A stretch of 54,300 bases of DNA, from positions 1 through 54,300 of the forward strand of contig PLYL01000006.1 of NCBI GenBank assembly GCA_003151795.1, given 5' to 3'. Each line of letters starts with the position of its first letter. Position 1 is the first letter of the stretch. The translations under genes were made by a program, and so were the position numbers. The DNA comes from Candidatus Yanofskybacteria bacterium (GTDB taxonomy: Bacteria; Patescibacteriota; Minisyncoccia; 2-02-FULL-40-12; GWA2-44-9). This document shows, piece by piece, positions 6,221 to 52,707 of the stretch. The notes under the pieces were generated by a model, which was not told the origin of the DNA, did not search any database, and saw only the letters and a list, made by a program, of their open reading frames with translations.

Positions 6221-8551
6221 TTACTTGAGAGCCACCTTTAGCACTTCATCCATCGTCTTCACGAAGAAGAATTTGATGTCGCGTTGGATTTCTTTAGGGA
6301 TATCGATAAGGTCTTTTTTGTTTTCGAACGGCGCGATAACGGTTTTGATGCCGGCCCGATGGGCGGCGAGAACTTTTTCTTTCAATCCGCCGATGCCGAG
6401 CACTTTGCCGCGCAACGTGACCTCGCCGGTCATGGCCACTTCTTTGCGGACAAGACGTTTGAGGAATAAAGAAACCAGAGTCGTGGTAATGGCGATACCC
6501 GCCGACGGACCTTCTTTTTTGACCCCGCCGGACGGCGCGTGCAGATGGATATCTTCCTTGCGCAAATCTTCCTTAACGCCATTGCGCGCGGCGTAGGCCC
6601 GGGCCCACGAGAGCGCGGCTTGAGCTGATTCTTTCATCACGATACCCAGCTGGCCCGTCAAGATTAGTTTTCCGGTGCCCGGCATACGGATGGCTTCGAT
6701 GTTAATCAAGTCTCCGCCGACGGGCGTCCAGGCCAAACCGGTCGCTCGGCCGATTTCATCCTTCTGCTCGGCCACGTCGTAGGTGAATTTAATCGGGCCA
6801 AGATAGGTCTCAATGGCTTCTTTGCCGACGCTGATGGTTTTGGTCGAAGATGATTCCACCAGTTTGCGGGTAATTTTGCGGATAACAGTGGCGAGCTGGC
6901 GTTCGAGCTCGCGGACGCCGGCTTCGCGGGTGTGATTGCGGATGACGTCCATCACCGCCGAGTCTTGGAAAGTTAAACTGCGCTTTTTTAAGCCGTGGTC
7001 TTTGAAAAGCCGCGGCAAAAGGAAATTCTTGGCGATATGGAATTTCTCCTGTTCGGTGTAGCCTGGGAATTCAATAATTTCTAAGCGGTCGCGCAAGGCC
7101 GGCGGAATCGTATCGAGGCGGTTGGCTGTGGCGATGAACAATACATCGGACAAATCAAACGGCACTTCCAGATAATGATCCGAGAAGGCGTGGTTCTGTT
7201 GCGGGTCGAGAGCTTCGAGCAAAGCCGAAGACGGGTCGCCTCGGAAATCCGAACCGACTTTGTCGATTTCATCGAGCATAAAGACGGGATTTCTGACTTT
7301 GGCGGTTTGAATGCCCTGAATCAACCGGCCGGGCATGGCGCCGACATAAGTCCGGCGGTGGCCGCGGATTTCGGCTTCATCCCGCAAACCGCCCAGCGAG
7401 ACGCGGGCAAATTTACGGCCGAGGGCGCGAGCGATGGACTGGCCGACCGAAGTCTTGCCCGTCCCTGGCGGACCGACCAGACAGAGAATCGGGCCCTTTA
7501 ATTTGCCGACTTGTTTTTGGACGGCGAGGTATTCCAGGACGCGTTCTTTAACTTTCGGCAAACCGTAGTGGTCTTCGTTGAGGATTTTCTCGGCTTCTTT
7601 TAAATCAATTTTTTCTTTGGTTTTCTTGGCCCAGGGCAATTCACTCAATAAATCTAGGTAACTGCGGATATACGAACCTTCGGGATTGAAGGCCGGCATC
7701 TTACCCAATCGGCCCAATTCTTTGAGGGCTTTTTCTTGGACGTCTTTAGGCATGCCGGCAGACATAATCTTGGCGCGGATGGAGACCAGCTCGTCTTTCT
7801 CATCATCGACGCCGAGTTCTTTTTCGATGCTCTTTAATTGCTCGCGGAGAAATAACTCTTTCTGCATCTTGCCGATTTGTTTTTTAGTTTCTTTGACGAC
7901 GCTCTTTTCGGTTTCCAGAATCTGGACTTCGCGCGAAAGATACATATTGAGCTGGCGCAAAATATCAAGCATGCTTTCCAGTTCCAGGATGCGCTGCTGA
8001 TTCTCGACTTCCAAATTCAAATTTACCGTCATCAGGCTGGCGATGTGCTCGGTGTCTTTGAGCTGGGACATCATATAAATAATTTCGGGCAGGATGGTCG
8101 GGAAAGAACGGGCTTCGGAAATAACTCGAAATTGCTCAATCGCTCGGCGCAGGATAGCCTTTTCGTCCAGGCTGTCGCGGATAATCAGGGCCATCGGTTC
8201 GGCATTCACCCGCAGAAACGGCTCTTCAGACACAAAGTCAGTAATGCGCGCTCGAACGAGACCTTCAACGTCAATCTTAGAGGAACCGTCGGGCAGTTTA
8301 AAAACCGAAACAATCCGGCCGATGGTGCCAACCTCGAATAAATCATTGCGAGAAATATCGTCTTCGCTATTCTTTTGGGTTACAAAGAGAACGAGCCGGT
8401 TGTGGGCCTGGGCGAATTCCAGCGCCCCGATCGATTTCGGACGCTGAATAATAATCGGGATGACGATCTTGGGGAAGAGCACGGTATTCTTGAGGGCAAT
8501 CACCGGCAATTCCTCGGGGATAATAATGTTGTTGATTTTGAATTCGGACAT
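6221..8551 (-). CDS. lon: ATP-dependent Lon protease (LonA)
   Basis: 776 aa. It has an N-terminal LON domain, the Walker A motif GPPGTGKTS, and a C-terminal protease with the PSAGIA serine motif. Confidence 0.95.
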   Translation of the reverse strand: MSEFKINNIIIPEELPVIALKNTVLFPKIVIPIIIQRPKSIGALEFAQAHNRLVLFVTQKNSEDDISRNDLFEVGTIGRIVSVFKLPDGSSKIDVEGLVRARITDFVSEEPFLRVNAEPMALIIRDSLDEKAILRRAIEQFRVISEARSFPTILPEIIYMMSQLKDTEHIASLMTVNLNLEVENQQRILELESMLDILRQLNMYLSREVQILETEKSVVKETKKQIGKMQKELFLREQLKSIEKELGVDDEKDELVSIRAKIMSAGMPKDVQEKALKELGRLGKMPAFNPEGSYIRSYLDLLSELPWAKKTKEKIDLKEAEKILNEDHYGLPKVKERVLEYLAVQKQVGKLKGPILCLVGPPGTGKTSVGQSIARALGRKFARVSLGGLRDEAEIRGHRRTYVGAMPGRLIQGIQTAKVRNPVFMLDEIDKVGSDFRGDPSSALLEALDPQQNHAFSDHYLEVPFDLSDVLFIATANRLDTIPPALRDRLEIIEFPGYTEQEKFHIAKNFLLPRLFKDHGLKKRSLTFQDSAVMDVIRNHTREAGVRELERQLATVIRKITRKLVESSSTKTISVGKEAIETYLGPIKFTYDVAEQKDEIGRATGLAWTPVGGDLINIEAIRMPGTGKLILTGQLGIVMKESAQAALSWARAYAARNGVKEDLRKEDIHLHAPSGGVKKEGPSAGIAITTTLVSLFLKRLVRKEVAMTGEVTLRGKVLGIGGLKEKVLAAHRAGIKTVIAPFENKKDLIDIPKEIQRDIKFFFVKTMDEVLKVALK

Positions 8552-10820: not shown

Positions 10821-11654
10821 TTATACGATTAACAAAGCGATAACGTAACCAATCAGAGTCATTGTCGCAATCGGAGGCAAGGCCGCCATGGGCTGGCGTT
10901 TGGGCTGGCTGACGAAGATAACATGGGTCAGAAGCAAGCCCAGGAGCGCGAAGCACGCCACGATAATCGCCTCCGGCAATGATTGGCGGACCAAGGAGCT
11001 CACAAAAATTACGGGCAAACCAATATCGCCCGAACCGAGAATCATAAAATCTTGGCCGATGCGATGCTTGGCTTCATGGCGGGAGGCCATAAAGTGCCGA
11101 AAACTCGAAGGGATAATCAACCCGAACACGGCCCCGGAACGAATCATGCTCTCCGCCATCCGGACCATATGCCGGGTCTTATACACGGCGATGATATCGT
11201 AAAAAGACAGCAACACTAAAGCCAGGATGCCGACCGCCGGCGTAATCATGATGCCGATTGCGGCGCCGATGCCGGCAATGGCCAGAATAATCGCTAAATC
11301 GTGCACAATCACGTTATGGACTAGAAGAAAAATCGCCAGAATAAACAAAGCGCCGATAATATCGGTCGGGAATGGCGCCATCGAGGCAATCACAATCTGG
11401 GCGCCGGAGAGGATGATAATCGAGAGAAAAATCCAAAACATCCAGCTCGCTAGCCGAGGGGTCCGGCTAATGAACCAAACGGCGGCGAGGATGAAGGCAA
11501 ACCCGGCCAAGTCCCCGAGGGTGATGGAAGAGGGCTGATAAATTTCAACGCTCGAGAGCAGAAGCACATACCGATAGGCCACGAACAAACCCAGCGCGAG
11601 AGTCGCGCCGAACATCAACGCCTCTTTTAAAAAAAGACTTGGCTGGATTTTCAT
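10821..11654 (-). CDS. presenilin / signal-peptide-peptidase-like intramembrane aspartyl protease (A22-like)
   Basis: Polytopic protein with a YD motif (LLSFYDIIAVY), a GxGD motif (ILGSGDIGLP) and a PAL-like AALPP near the C-terminus. I set the start at ATG 11654 because the track extension is translation of the repeat arm. Confidence 0.6.
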   Translation of the reverse strand: MKIQPSLFLKEALMFGATLALGLFVAYRYVLLLSSVEIYQPSSITLGDLAGFAFILAAVWFISRTPRLASWMFWIFLSIIILSGAQIVIASMAPFPTDIIGALFILAIFLLVHNVIVHDLAIILAIAGIGAAIGIMITPAVGILALVLLSFYDIIAVYKTRHMVRMAESMIRSGAVFGLIIPSSFRHFMASRHEAKHRIGQDFMILGSGDIGLPVIFVSSLVRQSLPEAIIVACFALLGLLLTHVIFVSQPKRQPMAALPPIATMTLIGYVIALLIV

Positions 11655-11791
11655 CCCGCACATAACAAGCACCAACTGCTTAGGCAATACAAATGTTTGT
11701 ATTATCCAAGATTATCAGTGCTGCATGGTTAATATTATTTATATACAGACAGTGACATAATCGTATTGCAAGTGCTCGTTATGTGCGGGAT
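11653..11791 (-). repeat. type-1 palindromic intergenic element, copy 1 (139 nt)
   Basis: Arms 11653-11672 and 11772-11791 pair at 19/20 positions, with G.U at the exception in - sense. The element spans exactly from the stop TAA (11793-11791) to the ATG (11654-11652). Confidence 0.85.
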
Positions 11792-12072
11792 TAGTAATTC
11801 AGCCACGGCCGATCCGGATACTGGTGAATAAAATAGTTGTAGCCTTGGCCGGGCGGGATGGCAATATTATTATCTTTAATCCACTGGGCAATCAGCTGGC
11901 GCTCGGTTGAAGACATCGATTTCACTTGAGTGGCGGACGCGTCAAGGACAATCTGGTCGGAGTCATAGTTTTTAATCGCGATAAATAAAATGCCGGCCAT
12001 AAACATCGCCATCAAAGAAATAAATACCGCGCCCATTCGGGACTCGACTTGCATTGTCAGCGGATTGGTCAT
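11791..12072 (-). CDS. hypothetical small membrane-anchored protein
   Basis: 93 aa with one N-terminal TM helix. No family recognised. Confidence 0.4.
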   Translation of the reverse strand: MTNPLTMQVESRMGAVFISLMAMFMAGILFIAIKNYDSDQIVLDASATQVKSMSSTERQLIAQWIKDNNIAIPPGQGYNYFIHQYPDRPWLNY

Positions 12073-20240: not shown

Positions 20241-20311
20241 TTCTCAAAAACGCGCCTAGAAGCGTTTTTGAGAATGGTTTAAAAAACTACCATATGGTAG
20301 TTTTTTAAACC
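20241..20311. terminator. two tandem bidirectional hairpins between convergent rpsT and ftsW
   Basis: TTCTCAAAAACGC/GCGTTTTTGAGAA (20241-20274), followed by a perfect 36-nt palindrome GGTTTAAAAAACTACCAT/ATGGTAGTTTTTTAAACC (20276-20311). Confidence 0.7.
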
Positions 20312-20320
20312 ATTCTGTTT

Positions 20321-21413: not shown

Positions 21414-22478
21414 TTATTTAAATGGCGGGAGTTTGCTGTCGATGAGGAAGAGGACCAGGCCGATAATGGCGCCGATGGCGTTGATCATCCAGAAACGCAT
21501 GGTGATTTGGGTTTCGGGCCAGCCCATGGCTTCGAAGGTGTGGTGAATCGGCGTCGAAGGAAATATTTTCTTCTTCCGGATTTTTTTTGAAATAGTTTGG
21601 AGAATGACCGAGCCGGACTCCATCAAAGGAATAATGGCGATAATCGGCAAGAGCAATTCAGTATTCGTGAGCAACGCCACGACCCCGACCGTAAAACCCA
21701 GGGCCATCACACCGGTATCGCCCATGAAAAACTTGGCGGGATAAATATTGAACCACAGGAATCCAATCAGCGCGCCCATAATCGCAACGAGAAAAATCGT
21801 GAGATCAAAACGGCCCTGGTCAAACGCAATCGCGGCCAGCGCGCCAAAGATAGTGAGAAACACTCCGCCCGATAAACCATCGAGGCCGTCGGTTTCATTC
21901 ATTGAGAATGCTGTGGCAACCATAATAAAAATAAAATAAGGGATGTACCACCAACCAATCGTATATTCTCCCAGAAACGGCACCGTAATCGTCCGAATGT
22001 CGAGCTTAAAATAAAACCACCACGCGCCGATAGCCGCCACGCCAATAAAAAATAACAGGCGCTTGCTCAATTTTAGACCTCCGCGCTTTAAAACACCCAC
22101 CATGTCATCAGCCATGCCGACCAAGCCCGCGAGAATTAAAAAGCCCAATGGGAGCAAGGTCTGGCTTCGGGAAAGAAAATTAATCCGACCCCAGATACCG
22201 CCAAATAAAGTGGCGAGTAACCAGCACCCGAGAGTGATTATCGAAACGGTCAGCCAAATCGGCAAACCGCCCATCGTCGGGGTGCCTTCTTTTTTGCGAT
22301 GGAGACTATTAAAGATGGGTGTATCCGAGCGCTCAATGGCCTTGCCCGGTTTAAAGCGAGTGAACAAAACCTTAGTCCAGAAGTGGGTGATGATGAGATT
22401 TAAAAAGAAGGCCGTCGTGGCAATCACAAACAGCCGGACGACGTTAAATATATTGAGGCTTTCGAGAGGAATCGTCAT
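21414..22478 (-). CDS. mraY: phospho-N-acetylmuramoyl-pentapeptide transferase
   Basis: MGDTGVMALG, NETDGLDGL and other MraY motifs. Start at ATG 22478. Confidence 0.9.
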   Translation of the reverse strand: MTIPLESLNIFNVVRLFVIATTAFFLNLIITHFWTKVLFTRFKPGKAIERSDTPIFNSLHRKKEGTPTMGGLPIWLTVSIITLGCWLLATLFGGIWGRINFLSRSQTLLPLGFLILAGLVGMADDMVGVLKRGGLKLSKRLLFFIGVAAIGAWWFYFKLDIRTITVPFLGEYTIGWWYIPYFIFIMVATAFSMNETDGLDGLSGGVFLTIFGALAAIAFDQGRFDLTIFLVAIMGALIGFLWFNIYPAKFFMGDTGVMALGFTVGVVALLTNTELLLPIIAIIPLMESGSVILQTISKKIRKKKIFPSTPIHHTFEAMGWPETQITMRFWMINAIGAIIGLVLFLIDSKLPPFK

Positions 22479-22615
22479 CCCGCACATAACAAGCACCGAC
22501 TGCTTTAGCAATACGATTGTTCGTATTAACCAAGCTTATCAGTACTGTATGATTAATTATTATTAAATATGCATAGTCCCGCAGTAGTATTGCCAGTGCT
22601 TGTTATGTGCGGGAT
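22477..22615 (-). repeat. type-1 palindromic intergenic element, copy 2 (139 nt)
   Basis: Arms 22477-22496 and 22596-22615 are perfectly complementary (20/20). The element spans exactly from the stop TAA (22617-22615) to the mraY ATG (22478-22476). Confidence 0.9.
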
Positions 22616-25213: not shown

Positions 25214-25286
25214 GCGCCCGTAGCTCAGTTGGTAGAGCAGCTCCCTTTTAAGGAGACGGTCATAGGTTCGAATCCTATCGGGCGCA
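25214..25286 (+). tRNA. tRNA-Lys (anticodon UUU)
   Basis: A 73-nt cloverleaf: acceptor GCGCCCG/CGGGCGC, D arm GCTC-AGTTGGTA-GAGC, anticodon loop CTTTTAA, T arm ATAGG-TTCGAAT-CCTAT. CCA is not encoded. Confidence 0.9.
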
Positions 25287-28267: not shown

Positions 28268-29575
28268 TTAAACAGTTGGAATTCCGGCCGGGGCTTCGCC
28301 TTTCTTGGTTTCGATGCGGGGCAAGGATGGCGTCTTCACGCCGACGTCGGGCACATGAAATATGGTCGTCAATTCTTCGGTATTCAAAACCAAAGGCTTA
28401 TCGGGGAAGGCGCGTTCTCGATAGCGTTTATATATTTTTTTCTTATTTTTTAAGGCTCGAACGGCTTTATTGAAGCCCTTGGTGATATCAGTCGAAATGC
28501 CCGGCTTGAAACCATTGAGAGCCTGAGTGGCGAATTGTTTGAACGCGCCGGCGACACTGCGCATCCGACCGTCGTCATATTTATCGAGCGGAGCGATATA
28601 AACCATCCGAATGCCGGCTTCAAAGGCTAGTTTGGCCGTGCCTTTTTCAATTGTTTTAACTATCTCCTGAATGCCAGGGTTGAGTTGATTGAATGGTTTG
28701 TCTTCTTTCTTTTTTTCTTCCTTTTTATCTTTTGGTTCGGCCGGCTCATAAATCGCGCCGGCGACGGAGCGGGCGCCGCCCTCAATGCCGGCAAAGACCG
28801 AATCGGCAAAATTTGTCTTTTTCTTTTCTTCTCGGCCCATCAGCTTGTCCACGGCCGGCTGGCCCTTTTTAACCCAGGCGTCCCCGGTCGAGCGGGCCAA
28901 AATCTGGATTCCGAAAAATTCCGAGAGACCCAGCGCGCCCAAAGTCTCGGCAATCGGGGCCAAAGGGTCAATCCGGCGGACGTCGTCTTTACCGGCGCCT
29001 TCTTCCTCAAATTCCGGATAGGTCTTGATGGGGAAAATATCTTCTTTGATGAAGACCAATTCGAGGGCGTTGACATTGACCTCGCCGTAAGACAGCGCGG
29101 CCGGAAAACGCGACATGTAATCCGCCACTGGCGTTAATTCCGATTCGGGATATTGGGCGTAAACCTGGGCTTCGACCAAACTTTTATACTTCTCGATGGC
29201 TCGAATGTAAAAATGAATCTCTCCGCCCGAACCGACCATTTCCAGCGCGAGCCAGTCCGGCACCTTGCCTTTAAAGAAGGCGTCCCGCCATTTTTTATAT
29301 TTTTCCCAGAGATTTTTGGCGGGCGACGATTGCCCGACGACGTGAAAGCCGGCGAAAATCTGCTCCATCGCCTTTAAGCTCTTATGGGCGTCAATGGGAA
29401 TCTTGAGCTCATAAGTAATCCACTTCAATCCGGCCTTGTAGACTTTTTTATTGTATTCCTTAAGCGCTTCCGCGTAGACGAAAATGAGGATGATGGGCGC
29501 CCAAAGCCACCAGTAGGCAAACATGAAACCCAAAGCCGTCCAAGTCGAGCCCAGGGTGTTTAGGATTGGATCCAT
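28268..29575 (-). CDS. membrane-anchored hypothetical protein, operon partner of the ATPase
   Basis: 435 aa starting at ATG 29575, with an N-terminal TM segment and a KKEEKKKEDK linker. Its stop lies 2 nt before the ATPase start. Confidence 0.5.
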   Translation of the reverse strand: MDPILNTLGSTWTALGFMFAYWWLWAPIILIFVYAEALKEYNKKVYKAGLKWITYELKIPIDAHKSLKAMEQIFAGFHVVGQSSPAKNLWEKYKKWRDAFFKGKVPDWLALEMVGSGGEIHFYIRAIEKYKSLVEAQVYAQYPESELTPVADYMSRFPAALSYGEVNVNALELVFIKEDIFPIKTYPEFEEEGAGKDDVRRIDPLAPIAETLGALGLSEFFGIQILARSTGDAWVKKGQPAVDKLMGREEKKKTNFADSVFAGIEGGARSVAGAIYEPAEPKDKKEEKKKEDKPFNQLNPGIQEIVKTIEKGTAKLAFEAGIRMVYIAPLDKYDDGRMRSVAGAFKQFATQALNGFKPGISTDITKGFNKAVRALKNKKKIYKRYRERAFPDKPLVLNTEELTTIFHVPDVGVKTPSLPRIETKKGEAPAGIPTV

Positions 29576-29710
29576 CCCGCACTTAACGAGCATCTGGCTT
29601 CTAGTCTCGCTCATCGTCTATGACGATATGCGCGCCAATGCTTATTATATTATATACAATATCTGGATACGCCATCACTTTAGAGACTAATGCTCGCTTA
29701 AGTGCGGGAT
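29574..29710 (-). repeat. type-1 palindromic element, copy 3 (137 nt, diverged)
   Basis: Arms 29574-29593 and 29690-29710 pair with one bulge. A second stem is TAGTCTC (29602-29608) / GAGACTA (29683-29689). The element ends at the ATG (29575-29573). Confidence 0.8.
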
Positions 29711-33659: not shown

Positions 33660-33715
33660 GCCCGCGACGGCGCGCACCAAACGAGGTGCCCGTCGGACGC
33701 GGGCACTTTGTTTTT
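33660..33715 (+). terminator. conserved 18-nt 3' box plus intrinsic terminator (copy 1)
   Basis: GCCCGCGACGGCGCGCAC (33660-33677), then GTGCCCG, a 7-nt loop, CGGGCAC and TTTGTTTTT. Confidence 0.7.
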
Positions 33716-33759
33716 ATCTGTGCTCAAAAGTGTCCGTACGGACACTTTTGAGCACAGAT
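33716..33759. promoter_or_regulatory. perfect 44-bp palindrome (operator-like or cruciform)
   Basis: ATCTGTGCTCAAAAGTGTCCGT (33716-33737) is the exact reverse complement of ACGGACACTTTTGAGCACAGAT (33738-33759). Confidence 0.8.
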
Positions 33760-33779
33760 CAATCGAGAGATTCTTTTTC

Positions 33780-44630: not shown

Positions 44631-44671
44631 GCCCGCAACAGAGTTGAACTCTGTTGCGGGCGTCGTTTTTT
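44631..44671. terminator. bidirectional terminator between ORF 44099-44629 and hpf
   Basis: GCCCGCAACAGAGT-TGA-ACTCTGTTGCGGGC, then GTCGTTTTTTA. Confidence 0.75.
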
Positions 44672-44996
44672 ATTTACTAGGCTTGCGAGACAAGTCTTTT
44701 TTCTTTTCTTTGAGCTTTTTGATTTGGAGATGGAGTTCGTCGCGAGCTTCGTCGATGGCGGTGCGGAGATCCTTGTGGGTCGCTTCGCCGCGCAAGAGCG
44801 CGCCGCCGACTTTTAGATTTACTTCGGCATAAAATACGGGACCAGAACGATGGCGGAGCGAAGGCTTGCCGATTTCCACACTCGCACTGACTGGGCCCTT
44901 CTGAATAAACCTCTCGAGACTGCCTATCTTCTGTTCCGTAAATACCCGCAACGGCGCGTCGAGGGTGATGTTTTTGGCGGTAATATTTATTTTCAT
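44670..44996 (-). CDS. hpf: ribosome hibernation promoting factor (short HPF/RaiA)
   Basis: MKINITAKNITLDAPLRVFTEQKIGSLERF... is typical of HPF. 108 aa. Confidence 0.85.
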   Translation of the reverse strand: MKINITAKNITLDAPLRVFTEQKIGSLERFIQKGPVSASVEIGKPSLRHRSGPVFYAEVNLKVGGALLRGEATHKDLRTAIDEARDELHLQIKKLKEKKKDLSRKPSK

Positions 44997-45066
44997 CCCG
45001 TTAGAAGTTGCCAGCCCGAGGCCCTGCGGACTGCACTCAAAGTGCAGGCTGGACTCTAAACGGGAC
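44995..45066 (-). repeat. type-2 start-codon-abutting hairpin element (72 nt)
   Basis: TCCCG/CGGGA and CCAGCC/GGCTGG stems enclose a CTGCAC-n5-GTGCAG hairpin. The element ends at the hpf ATG (44996-44994). Confidence 0.75.
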
Positions 45067-45142: not shown

Positions 45143-45208
45143 CTATCTCTTTCTCTTCTTGGTTGCTTTCTTTTTGCCTTTTTTTGCGGCTTTGCGTTTC
45201 TTTGCCAT
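45143..45208 (-). CDS. 21-codon polybasic mini-ORF (speculative)
   Basis: ATG 45208 to TAG 45143 encodes MAKKRKAAKKGKKKATKKRKR. A strong terminator follows. No SD is visible. Confidence 0.25.
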   Translation of the reverse strand: MAKKRKAAKKGKKKATKKRKR

Positions 45209-48883: not shown

Positions 48884-51103
48884 CTACCAAGTTCGGCCGA
48901 GTTTCTGGACAAAGAGTTTGGCGTCGGCTTCAAAGCTAGGATCGATTTGGGCGGTAATGTGCGCTTGGGCGATAGCATCGTCAATCCGGCCGACGCTGGC
49001 GTAAGCAGCCGCCAAAGAAGCGTGGTACTGGGGGCTGTTGGGAACTAATTTGACTAATCCTTCATATACTGTCACGAGGTGCTGGAAATCGTTGCGCTTG
49101 ATATAAATGTTGGCAAGATTTAGATAATCGTTCTCGGCTAATGTGTATCCTTTCTTAATTGCTTCATCCATGTTAACCAAGGCTTTGTCGGTCTCGCCGG
49201 CTTGCATCTCAACGGCACCGAGATACCAATATGAAATACCGACATCGGGATTAAGGTCAACCGCTTTCTGGAAGGCGACTTCAGCCTTCGGATAATCCTT
49301 TTTGTTAAGATAGGCCTGGCCGACTTCATAATAGGTGCGGACGAATGTCGGCGAATAACTCAACGCCTTTGTGGAATGCTTCAAGGCCTCGTCATTATAC
49401 GGCGAATTAGGGTCTGATTTGCCAAGAATAATGTTTAAGCGGGATAGGTATAGCTCCGGCAAATAATCTTCAGTGTTCTCCGCCGCATTTTTTTCTTCCA
49501 AAGCAATAATTTCTTTAAAAATATCGGCTACTTCCGGCGTTATTTTATTACTATTACTATAGTCCAGCAGGAACTGGGCAAATTGGTTTCGATATTCATA
49601 TCGGCCATTTCCGTCGAAGGAAACGGCATCCCGGTAAGACGCGACCGCGGCGGTGAAATCATTGTTGTAGCCCGCGATAATGCCTCGGGTCGTGGCGTAA
49701 TTGGCAATGGCCGTCCGAACATTCGTCTGATACGCCAAATAAACGGCGCCGACGATAACGATAGCACCAAGCACGAACGTTAATCCTCCGGAAACCGGCC
49801 GGCCCGTTTTTGTTTCAATTCTCGGAGATTCCGGCCGGTTCAAAAACGAAATGTAGCCCAAGGCGCTGAAGAAGACCAGAAAATTCGCCGAAGTGTCGAA
49901 TATAAACGCGTTGTGAATTATATACGCGATGACCATGGAGATAAGGCCAATGGCCGGAACGCGGAATCCAGGCTTATTTTTTAAACGCCACAGCGCCCGG
50001 AATATCACGCCAAATAACGCTAGGTAGGCCAGAAACCCAAGCAGGCCCATCGTGACGAGAATTTCGACAAACATGTTGTGAGCTCGGTCAAACATGGTTT
50101 CTGAACTGGGGCCATTAAAGAATTTGGGATTGAAATATTTTGAAAACGGAATATTAAAATTTTCCGGGCCCCAGCCGAAAATAATTCTTTGGGGGCTCTC
50201 GCTCCAGCCTTTCAAACCGGCTTGCCAAGCCCAGAACCGGGTTTGGACGGTATAACTGGAGAGGGAAAGATCGGTCACCCGGCGCAAATATTGGGAGTTT
50301 TGAACAATTGCGCTATTTTTGAAAGCAAAAGCAAACCCGACGAACAGCACAACAAAGACCAGCATGGAAATCAAGACTTTTTTAGCCAGTTTTGAATTGG
50401 TTTGGGCAAAATACAAAAAAACAAAAACAAGAAAACCAATGCTTATTCCCAAAATAGAACCGCGGACCACAGTCATAAATACCGCCAGACTCATAACGGC
50501 CGCGGAAATTAGGAAAAAATTACGCTTGCTCTTTACGGCAGCCCCGAATCCTAGAATCAGCGCCAAGAAAACATTCAGAATCTGATAGCCGGCGAAAAGA
50601 GCCGGATTGCCAATCGTGCCGAAAATACGCTCCCGACCGCCGGAACCGATAAAGAAAGCTATATTAGTTCGTTGGCCAAATCCATACAGCGCCGAGAGCA
50701 CGCCGACGCCCACTGTAATTTCTAAGAACCTGAACCAGTCGTCTTTGGTTCGAAGAACCGAAGTTAGGATGATATAAAAGATGAAATAGTGCCAGAAGCT
50801 ATAGAGGCCACCCATGCGTTCAAGGGTGCCCCAGAAACTCTGATAGACATTTATACTCGTAAACGTCGTGACAGTGAAGGCGAGCGTGAAACTAAGAAAA
50901 GCCCAAAAGAAGATGTCGCGCCGAGGTAAAAAGGACCGATCCTGCCAGATTAAGACCAGGTAGAGAGCCAGCATAATCTCAACTAGACTTCTAAAGAGAA
51001 CTATTTTCCCAAAATGAAACGGCGAAATATACTGTGAAAAAATAACCAGCGGCATAAACGCGGCCGCGTAGACGCAATACTTCAATATTTTGTGGATATT
51101 CAT
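48884..51103 (-). CDS. O-antigen-ligase-like polytopic membrane protein fused to C-terminal TPR repeats
   Basis: 739 aa. The N-terminal roughly 440 aa are multi-TM and Wzy_C-like. The C-terminal part has TPR-like repeats (AYLNKKDYPKAEVAFQKAVDLNP and others). Confidence 0.7.
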   Translation of the reverse strand: MNIHKILKYCVYAAAFMPLVIFSQYISPFHFGKIVLFRSLVEIMLALYLVLIWQDRSFLPRRDIFFWAFLSFTLAFTVTTFTSINVYQSFWGTLERMGGLYSFWHYFIFYIILTSVLRTKDDWFRFLEITVGVGVLSALYGFGQRTNIAFFIGSGGRERIFGTIGNPALFAGYQILNVFLALILGFGAAVKSKRNFFLISAAVMSLAVFMTVVRGSILGISIGFLVFVFLYFAQTNSKLAKKVLISMLVFVVLFVGFAFAFKNSAIVQNSQYLRRVTDLSLSSYTVQTRFWAWQAGLKGWSESPQRIIFGWGPENFNIPFSKYFNPKFFNGPSSETMFDRAHNMFVEILVTMGLLGFLAYLALFGVIFRALWRLKNKPGFRVPAIGLISMVIAYIIHNAFIFDTSANFLVFFSALGYISFLNRPESPRIETKTGRPVSGGLTFVLGAIVIVGAVYLAYQTNVRTAIANYATTRGIIAGYNNDFTAAVASYRDAVSFDGNGRYEYRNQFAQFLLDYSNSNKITPEVADIFKEIIALEEKNAAENTEDYLPELYLSRLNIILGKSDPNSPYNDEALKHSTKALSYSPTFVRTYYEVGQAYLNKKDYPKAEVAFQKAVDLNPDVGISYWYLGAVEMQAGETDKALVNMDEAIKKGYTLAENDYLNLANIYIKRNDFQHLVTVYEGLVKLVPNSPQYHASLAAAYASVGRIDDAIAQAHITAQIDPSFEADAKLFVQKLGRTW

Positions 51104-51179
51104 CCCGTTAGAAGTAGCCCCGCCAAGGTCCTCCGGACTCGTCCAGCCTTCGGCGGACGAGCGAGACTTCTAACGGGAT
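51102..51179 (-). repeat. type-2 start-codon-abutting hairpin element (78 nt)
   Basis: ATCCCGTTAGAAGT (51102-51115) is perfectly complementary to ACTTCTAACGGGAT (51166-51179). The element ends at the ATG (51103-51101). Confidence 0.8.
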
Positions 51180-51190
51180 TCATTGATTAT

Positions 51191-51218
51191 ATTCTACGCT
51201 CTTCAACGGCGGGGTCAA
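51191..51218 (-). promoter_or_regulatory. promoter immediately upstream of the type-2 element
   Basis: In - sense: TTGACC, 16-nt spacer, TAGAAT. The predicted start site is only a few nt before the 5' arm. Confidence 0.5.
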
Positions 51219-52584: not shown

Positions 52585-52648
52585 CGCGGGAGATAAATTA
52601 AGACCTTATAGTAACACGGATAACGCTTACTTTCTAGAATGATTTATA

Positions 52649-52690
52649 ATCTAAAACCTCTCCGACAATATCGTCGGAGAGGTTTTAGAT
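52649..52690 (-). terminator. perfect 18-bp hairpin downstream of ORF 52708-53697
   Basis: ATCTAAAACCTCTCCGAC, a 6-nt loop, GTCGGAGAGGTTTTAGAT. There is no clear U-tract. Confidence 0.5.
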
Positions 52691-52707
52691 TAAGTTAACC
52701 TTAACTG

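Follow-up and report, generated by a model that had tools for sequence, protein, structure and literature searches.

A 76-nt inverted-repeat element, very probably a miniature transposable element, inserted at the start codon of a Wzy-like gene in Candidatus Yanofskybacteria

The stretch of DNA analysed here (positions 1 to 54,300 of the forward strand of contig PLYL01000006.1, Candidatus Yanofskybacteria; 54,300 nt in all, hereafter the window) encodes a Wzy_C protein (O-antigen-ligase-like, 739 aa) that carries TPR repeats, and the 5′ end of this gene is occupied by a 78-nt hairpin. An initial annotation of the sequence proposed that promoter, hairpin and AUG follow one another directly, such that the whole 5′ untranslated region (UTR) would consist of the ‘type-2’ element. 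As detailed below, the hairpin is explained as a mobile-element insertion rather than as a bespoke leader. The features at the locus are as follows.

51191..51218, minus strand: sigma-70-type promoter TTGACC-16-TAGAAT
51181..51183, minus strand: original start ATG, now an upstream copy, located on the predicted transcription start or 1 nt downstream of it
51179..51182, minus strand: 5′ copy (TGAA) of the target-site duplication
51103..51178, minus strand: type-2 element, 76 nt, TCCCG...CGGGA, very probably a MITE (miniature transposable element with inverted repeats)
51099..51102, minus strand: 3′ copy (TGAA) of the target-site duplication, which with the terminal A of the element (51103) rebuilds ATGAA
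51100..51183, minus strand: upstream open reading frame (uORF) of 27 codons spanning the element, MNPVRSLARPPKAGRVRRTLAGLLLTG and a stop codon (TGA, 51102-51100)
48884..51103, minus strand: host gene for the 739-aa Wzy-like protein

On the minus strand, which is the coding strand, the order reads TTGACC-16-TAGAAT, ataatca, ATGAA, TCCCGTTAGAAGT...ACTTCTAACGGGA, TGAATATCCAC. The promoter of the initial annotation was recovered by a promoter scan with 10 of 12 positions matched (0.4 hits of this type expected per shuffle), and the perfect 14-bp helix was reproduced by the pairing of the arm ATCCCGTTAGAAGT (51179-51166) with its exact complement ACTTCTAACGGGAT (51115-51102). The helix is composed of the 13 bp of the terminal inverted repeat of the element and a single pair contributed by the flanking TGAA/TGAA direct repeat. 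The 96-nt hairpin region folds with −45.5 kcal/mol (z = −4.96), a stability attained by 0 of 200 shuffled sequences. Promoter, hairpin and AUG are indeed directly consecutive, and the element accounts for almost the whole UTR. The duplicated upstream ATG (51183-51181) had been overlooked. This ATG begins 7 nt beyond the end of the −10 box (51196-51191), a leaderless geometry, and it is the codon at which the promoter is now aimed. The AUG at 51103 is the conserved start of the protein family, as the N-terminus MNIHKILKYCVYAAAFMPLVIF lines up with those of about 40 homologues (MNI.KILKY...) of ∼740 aa, in agreement with the start initially proposed; the existing database gene call, at 696 aa, is 43 residues short. 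The stop codon of the uORF (TGA, 51102-51100) and the main ATG (51103-51101) overlap as ATGA. No intrinsic terminator is called at 51102-51179, and UGAAUAUCC, not a U-tract, lies directly 3′ of the helix. Rfam gives no match for the hairpin at gathering threshold (hits in E-value mode reach at most 21 bits and are junk, compared with thresholds of 36–75), ribozymes included, and neither ARAGORN nor Rfam finds a tRNA-like fold in it, the sole tRNA of the window being a tRNA-Lys at 25214.

In the two nearest orthologous loci, L001 (75% protein identity) and L003 (74%), gene order is the same and the hairpin is missing. The flippase and Wzy-like genes are separated there by 15 and 38 nt, and gene structure is unchanged, an outcome that the initial annotation had itself named as refuting its proposal. 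The intact target site ATGAATAT is present in these relatives without the element, the element-free start sites reading ATGAAG in L001 and ATGAATATA in L003, and the L003 sequence tatttaatATGAATATACAG corresponds to ataatcaATGAA, element and TGAATATCCAC in the window. The spacing between the −10 box and the ATG in both empty sites is the same as in the window, and the Wzy-like gene has a leaderless geometry in all three. As these close relatives are without the element, the helix is a by-product of the element ends and not an evolved leader of the Wzy-like gene, and the notion of a gene-specific leader is abandoned here. A 5′-UTR regulator evolved for this gene (a stabiliser, a pseudoknot or a riboswitch-like switch) would be consistent with a stable structure that abuts promoter and AUG, and some stabilisation is plausible as a side effect given that RNase J, a 5′-end-dependent exonuclease, is conserved in the candidate phyla radiation (CPR). 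However, the absence of the hairpin from the closest orthologous loci, the occurrence of the same sequence in front of unrelated genes in many genomes, the flanking target-site duplication, the lack of conservation of the alternative pairing described below and the lack of an Rfam family match render such a regulator extremely improbable.

That the type-2 element is a genuine repeated family, as initially suspected, was established by two censuses. The first, run on species-representative genomes with a pattern covering the 3′ half of the element and stopping before the ATG, gave 50 matches in 47 loci, nearly all of them in Yanofskybacteria or other Patescibacteria metagenome-assembled genomes (MAGs), with single MAGs carrying 4–6 matches on different contigs (MGJA01, CAYHQI01, JACOZW01 and JBBTRD01). 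The second used the 5′ half only, left P3 (see below), the 3′ arm and the downstream sequence free, and was run on metagenomes; it added at least 120 matches that yield at least 95 non-redundant full copies. The combined set comprises 135 non-redundant copies among the matches listed, and the ATG is part of neither search pattern. Viral contigs gave 0 element matches. Copies are 70–76 nt in length, and 71 nt is the prevalent size in both the first (37/50) and the second census (91/97). Copies of 70–76 nt have no coding capacity for a transposase. All 13 outer pairs are formed in 85 of the 95 second-census copies, where the 3′ arm lay outside the search pattern.

A perfect 4-bp direct repeat flanks 81 of the 135 copies, and 19 more show a single mismatch (p about 1e-157). 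The consensus of this duplication is T-N-N-A, and fifteen different tetramers occur (TGAA in 38 copies, TGGA in 15, TAAA, TTGA, TCAA and TGTA in 4 each; also TGCG, CGCA, CGCG, CTAA and others). Directly after the element TG is found in 96 of 135 copies (71%; 1/16 expected), and in these the last A of the element completes an ATG. In the metagenome sample, 60 of 69 such rebuilt ATGs open a reading frame (ORF) that is at least 50 codons long or runs off the contig. A null model derived from the window, in which 91% of the sequence is coding, all 392 intergenic TNNA sites are tolerated and 14 of 53 genes start with xTGNA, predicts 1.7% of insertions at start codons in sense, or 17% if only TGRA sites are used and both orientations are taken together. 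The same position is apparent at the protein level: among 24 predicted proteins with an element-encoded peptide, an incomplete set from which P0059 is missing, MNPVR...G stands at the extreme N-terminus in 20 and is followed by a Met and a normal protein. Proteins that bear the element prefix include L36, S17, SecE, YidD and trigger factor. Further size classes with unrelated interiors and the same termini lie at start codons in 8 of 11 and 4 of 5 cases.

Several copies occupy other settings. The element peptide is internal in P0248 (GatC-like) and C-terminal in P0264. Copies inside long ORFs, for example in L009/L056, L024, L029 and L046, number 17 in sense and 4 in antisense and look like internal insertions that preserve the frame (71 + 4 = 75 nt). 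When the non-start copies were considered as stop-codon insertions, mixed contexts were found on crude, ORF-based gene maps. Tandem or nested copies that share one 4-bp duplication (...ACGGGA, CGCA, TCCCG...) occur in L046 (846-1057), L019 (1559-1756) and L027 (∼6480-6560), and the elements therefore insert beside or into one another.

The small size, the inverted-repeat ends (13 bp, TCCCGTTAGAAGT...ACTTCTAACGGGA), the duplication of fixed length, the dispersed copies and the empty sites together identify a MITE. Thus, the 78-nt hairpin is very probably a copy of a MITE family of Yanofskybacteria-like Patescibacteria that was inserted into the start region of a leaderless-type gene. The element entered the TGAA of the start region ATGAAT; the 5′ duplicate retains the original ATG beside the promoter, and the terminal A of the element rebuilds ATGAA together with the 3′ duplicate, leaving the ORF intact. 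Two observations weigh against this assignment. No autonomous parent was found, as element ends lying 0.3–4 kb apart enclosed no transposase in 0.47 of ∼1.26 Mb of related DNA, and the long-distance end pairs in this 0.47 Mb are separate small elements. In addition, two related 137-nt type-1 elements of the window, listed further below, both lack a 5′ duplicate, which may have been lost or may point to another mode of insertion. In all, the family displays every tested property of a MITE apart from an identified parent insertion sequence.

The start codon of the Wzy-like gene has been a target more than once. In the distant orthologue L004 (56% identity), an element of a different subfamily lies at the same start codon, and the gene call fuses it to the protein as MNPVRSLARALGASPKDLGGATSYG-MKEP...; the window copy is of a 76-nt subfamily (TTAGAAGT) and that of L004 of a 71-nt one (TACGAAGT). 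Differing subfamilies at one gene in different genomes are also seen at the MEKILIKP gene and the MNTQ gene, and such cases therefore represent repeated independent insertions into the same start codon. Other gene sets carry a single subfamily with compensatory changes in P2 and a decaying 5′ duplicate (ATGGA, ATGAA, ATTGA, ACGTA), as expected for old, retained insertions.

To describe the fold of the family, 46 unique first-census sequences were aligned, which was achieved without difficulty, and a consensus was computed with RNAalifold. The result is a three-way junction with compensatory double changes at 10 pairs. It consists of an outer helix P1 of 13 bp, a 3-nt bulge on the 3′ strand, a helix P1b of 5 bp, a variable hairpin P2, a hairpin P3 of the form GUCC-GNA-GGAC and a 4-nt joiner CUYG. 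The window copy adopts this consensus fold at −41.7 kcal/mol, compared with −43.0 kcal/mol for its minimum free energy structure, and its parts are located as follows.

51178-51166 with 51115-51103, minus strand: P1 (alignment columns 1-13/64-76)
51165-51161 with 51123-51119, minus strand: P1b (alignment columns 14-18/56-60)
51160-51139, minus strand: P2 hairpin
51138-51128, minus strand: P3 hairpin
51118-51116, minus strand: 3-nt bulge GCU

In the second census, in which the 3′ half was unconstrained, variants of the two arms covary (T:A/A:T 61/25, A:T/C:G 58/25 and A:T/G:C 79/9), and the 3′ strand of P3, the bulge GCU and the joiner CUYG are conserved at 95–100%. Loops of the C-GNA-G type are also classic stable DNA mini-hairpins, and the fold may matter as RNA or as single-stranded DNA. 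The inner CTCGTCC/GGACGAG helix of the initial annotation is real and corresponds to P2, which covaries across the family. The pseudoknot or switch proposed to arise from the alternative pairing of CCGCCAAGG with CCTTCGGCGG was rejected for lack of conservation, as even a 6-nt complement occurs in only 4 of 46 family members. The sense RNA is ∼2 kcal/mol more stable than the antisense RNA in 34 of 46 sequences, a weak indicator that is mostly due to one shared U·G pair, and the use of G·U versus A·C mispairs as a strand test gave 20:13, which is not significant. By inspection, no convincing outward promoter or correctly spaced Shine-Dalgarno (SD) sequence is present within the element.

A distinct feature of the family is its orientation. 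At start codons 96 copies are in sense and 1 candidate copy is in antisense, whereas copies away from start codons are divided into 30 on the same strand as neighbouring genes and 22 on the opposite strand (Fisher p = 4e-11). As both ends of the element are T...A, either orientation could rebuild an ATG. Non-palindromic duplications away from starts are found in both polarities (TTGA/TCAA, TAAA/TTTA), and together with the near-even 30:22 division this speaks against oriented integration or a replication-linked orientation, both rejected as the source of the bias. Insertion thus probably occurs in either orientation, with antisense copies at start codons probably removed by selection. As start-codon insertions persist only in sense, selection on the transcript is implied, and it is probably the sense transcript that is compatible with expression and the antisense transcript that is not. 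Read-through of the element was rejected as the cause of the bias because the frame of the upstream ATG is equally open in both orientations (stop-free in 27 versus 28 of 34). The preference for start sites as such is attributed to the shared ends, the duplication and selection, since size classes with unrelated interiors also favour starts; unlike this site bias, the orientation rule is a matter of the element interior.

How a ribosome would reach the AUG behind such a fold was raised as a question by the initial annotation, and the question is still valid and is sharpened by the family data. The 27-codon uORF ending in ATGA, which had been overlooked, offers a concrete means of ribosome loading. 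An AUG without an SD sequence, as noted there, holds for the window copy and is normal for this genome, in which only 6 of the 53 window genes have an SD-like motif. A −10-like hexamer (TATAAT, TACAAT, TATTAT, TAAGAT and others) lies ∼6–10 nt before the start codon in 14 of the 53, which suggests that the host organism relies mainly on leaderless or SD-independent initiation. In the window copy, transcription would start at or 1 nt before the upstream AUG, and a ribosome would initiate at this codon in leaderless fashion, possibly while the 3′ arm is still to be transcribed. Translation of the 27-codon uORF would then melt the helix, and the ribosome would terminate at the UGA in the AUGA overlap with the real AUG and reinitiate there. 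This sequence of leaderless initiation, uORF translation and termination–reinitiation is the likeliest and most economical route for the window copy, albeit a tentative one to which we attach less than even confidence.

Three observations speak against the proposed route. First, the 13-bp helix starts only 5 nt downstream of the upstream AUG and, once folded, could impede initiation in leaderless fashion. Second, among the 67 start-site copies with an upstream start, the ATGA overlap is present only in the window copy and, being unique to it, is not a design of the family. Third, 48 of the 96 start-site copies have no usable upstream start and have intact stems; these copies are confined to the embedded AUG, so another route must exist, and it may operate in the window copy as well. 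No stem erosion was detected in the copies that need the embedded AUG. The upstream ATG is changed to ATT in 13 copies, as illustrated by the infA–element–rpmJ set, where L012 and L045 have ATGAA and L023 has ATTAA, the derived state.

In many copies the uORF is of a different kind: of the 67 with an upstream start, 48 have an open frame in register with the gene (71 + 4 = 75 nt) and 14 stop inside the element. For the in-frame copies a 25-residue N-terminal extension is possible. If this applied generally, the element would be translated from the original start, the extension would be tolerated and the rebuilt ATG would be an unused internal Met; both the 25-codon length and the fusions predicted by gene callers (P0059, P0243-P0263) are in line with it. 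For the window copy such an extension is impossible, as 76 + 4 = 80 nt places the uORF out of frame and it stops at ATGA, and for the 48 of 96 start-site copies without a usable upstream start it is inapplicable. Nor does it account for the exact position at the start codon, rather than a spread over the first codons, or for the sense-only orientation, as both strands are equally open in the upstream-ATG frame. We consider it a doubtful explanation overall, with only a small chance of being correct.

The copies that depend on the embedded AUG call for a mechanism at the 3′ edge of the element. RNase J and RNase III are generally retained in CPR genomes, RNase III in at least 90% of them (PMC12641178), and thus cleavage at P1/P1b and protection by a 5′ hairpin are both plausible. 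In a processing scheme, RNase III or another endonuclease would cut the coaxial P1/P1b duplex and free a short or near-leaderless 5′ end before the rebuilt AUG, and the asymmetric 3-nt bulge on the 3′ strand would account for the tolerance of sense copies only at start codons. The 48 of 96 copies that need the embedded AUG without any weakening of their stems, the 95–99% conservation of bulge (GCU) and junction (CUYG) at positions outside the search pattern, the retention of RNase III and the 96:1 orientation at starts (30:22 elsewhere) are consistent with such processing. However, after a cut the leader would remain covered by an intermolecular duplex of 10–13 bp, the helix usually preferred by RNase III is ∼20 bp long, and the high conservation could simply reflect young copies. 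Processing of this kind is thus an unlikely explanation, albeit one that deserves more weight than a translated extension.

Alternatively, the sense fold may have been exapted as an initiation module, recruiting or positioning the ribosome in the manner of an internal ribosome entry site or a standby site, and been positively selected at starts as an SD-independent cassette. The extreme enrichment at start codons and the sense-only orientation would follow from such a role, and the conserved three-way junction with invariant unpaired nucleotides, the AGGA/GGAGGA motif in P3, the SD-poor genome and the compensatory P2 changes in old copies retained at the same gene while the 5′ duplicate decays point in the same direction. 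Conversely, the same genes are expressed without the element in the closest relatives, and the interior is dispensable for the site bias, as the same-termini classes with unrelated interiors are also mostly at starts (8/11 and 4/5). The AGGA motif is base-paired and lies 25 nt from the AUG, and Rfam offers no match. An initiation module is accordingly rated as quite improbable. More broadly, the sense transcript might be competent for initiation at its own 3′ edge, either through near-leaderless processing or through a ribosome-positioning fold, in a family specialised in the start codons of SD-poor, leaderless-rich CPR genomes; we hold this combined proposal to be improbable, at about the level of processing by itself.

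Among known systems the closest are the bacterial MITEs (for example Correia of Neisseria, ERIC of enterobacteria and RUP/BOX/SPRITE of pneumococci), which are small and multi-copy, with some copies fused to the 5′ ends of genes (PMC3184786). The type-2 family shares with them the non-coding nature, the inverted-repeat ends that fold as a hairpin, the target-site duplication and the presence/absence polymorphism. It differs from the named families in its TCCCG...CGGGA termini, its 4-bp T-N-N-A duplication, its length of 71–76 nt and its three-way-junction interior, as well as in the ∼71% of copies that interrupt precisely a start codon and restore it, almost without exception in sense. Correia (CREE) elements have a TA duplication, inverted repeats of ∼26 bp and a length of 100–155 bp; the 4-bp T-N-N-A duplication, the 13-bp repeats and the 71–76-nt length rule out this identity. 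REP/REPIN sequences, which are mobilised by RAYT, have no duplication and lie outside genes, mostly downstream of them, were likewise rejected on account of the 4-bp duplication and the 71% of copies at gene starts.

Repeats that include an ATG start codon are known from Neisseria (REP2) and from Borrelia plasmids (IR repeats), where they lie immediately upstream of genes (PMC3184786). They supply their own promoter and ribosome-binding site and no duplication has been described for them, whereas the type-2 element supplies only the A of the ATG. Rickettsia palindromic elements (RPEs) are, as far as the same source describes them, mobile palindromic repeats readable in frame as extra peptide segments (PMC3184786). 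The 75-nt increment (71 + 4) is RPE-like, and 27 of 34 unique 71-nt copies can be read without a stop in the frame of the upstream ATG, the +1 frame being equally open. However, RPEs are scattered inside coding regions, whereas the type-2 family sits at the first codon and rebuilds the start, and many of its copies are untranslatable from upstream.

The mycobacterial MIRU intercistronic repeats are reportedly oriented with the operon and contain short ORFs that overlap the flanking stop and start codons, from which Supply et al. in 1997 are said to have suggested translational coupling. The ATGA overlap of the uORF in the window copy and the type-1 copies that lie flush between a TAA and an ATG are MIRU-like in this respect. 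Unlike the MIRU family trait, the ATGA overlap is a property of the window copy alone, and MIRUs, as tandem minisatellite-like units, have neither inverted-repeat ends nor target-site duplications. In a literature search of incomplete coverage, neither a published CPR MITE family nor a start-codon-rebuilding, orientation-locked MITE was found.

The element corrupts gene calls in Patescibacteria MAGs. Besides the shortened Wzy-like protein, MraY is called 3 residues too long, and a spurious prefix of 25 residues (MNPVRSLAR...) stands on L36, S17, SecE, YidD and many other small housekeeping proteins in public databases; simply masking the element would correct hundreds of N-termini. The restoration of the interrupted codon by the terminal base of the element itself is an elegant means of survival in genomes that are 91% coding, and the same start codons have been hit repeatedly in different lineages. 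In at least 48 natural cases, one of them a gene for an essential ribosomal protein, initiation appears to take place at an SD-less AUG at the base of a fold of about −40 kcal/mol, and only in one orientation. The family thereby offers a natural sense/antisense contrast for the study of initiation with reduced ribosomes and almost no SD usage.

Four further elements are present in the window, all with their ends at start codons.

44996..45065, minus strand: second type-2 copy, 70 nt, older, with an imperfect outer stem and no recognisable duplication
29575..29709, minus strand: 135-nt element with TCCCG/CGGGA termini and a TGGA duplication, ending at the ATG of the ORF 28268-29575
22478..22614, minus strand: 137-nt type-1 element that directly abuts the TAA of a D-Ala-D-Ala carboxypeptidase gene on one side and the mraY ATG on the other
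11654..11790, minus strand: 137-nt type-1 element that directly abuts a 93-aa ORF at its TAA and a signal-peptide-peptidase gene at its ATG

The exact 14-mer of the helix arm is found again at 44995, and the type-2 copy there terminates at the ATG of the HPF gene (44670-44996), for which L003 has a clean empty site. The three elements of 135–137 nt have TCCCG...CGGGA ends, and the ATG of a housekeeping gene marks the exact end of each; the ORF 28268-29575 encodes a DUF8128-like protein. For the 135-nt copy, the empty site in L053 reads TATACT-gataagca-ATGGCAGAC, compared with TATACT-aatagcata-ATGGA, element, TGGATCC in the window. The mraY junction in relatives is an empty site of the form TAAtATG or TAAatATG, and it is the product of the mraY gene at 21414-22478 whose call is too long. 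All five elements of the window are in sense relative to the gene that they precede.

The 93-aa ORF (11791-12072, minus strand) that adjoins one type-1 element lies between cupredoxin-like and signal-peptide-peptidase genes and has no Pfam match. It has no counterpart in the syntenic locus L053, where the flanking genes are 17 nt apart, and it has the appearance of an insertion specific to the lineage. A lysine-rich ORF of 21 residues (MAKKRKAAKKGKKKATKKRKR and a stop codon; 45143-45208, minus strand), followed by a terminator-like hairpin, lies just upstream of the HPF gene. This ORF is kept in L003 (15868-15933) as MAKKRKAAKKGKKKVAKKKRV and a stop codon, and its product may be a tiny ribosome-associated protein. 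Finally, three perfect or near-perfect palindromes with zero spacer and arms of 23–25 nt occupy intergenic positions (20271-20316, 33713-33762 and 52647-52692), and may represent bidirectional terminators or another class of repeat.

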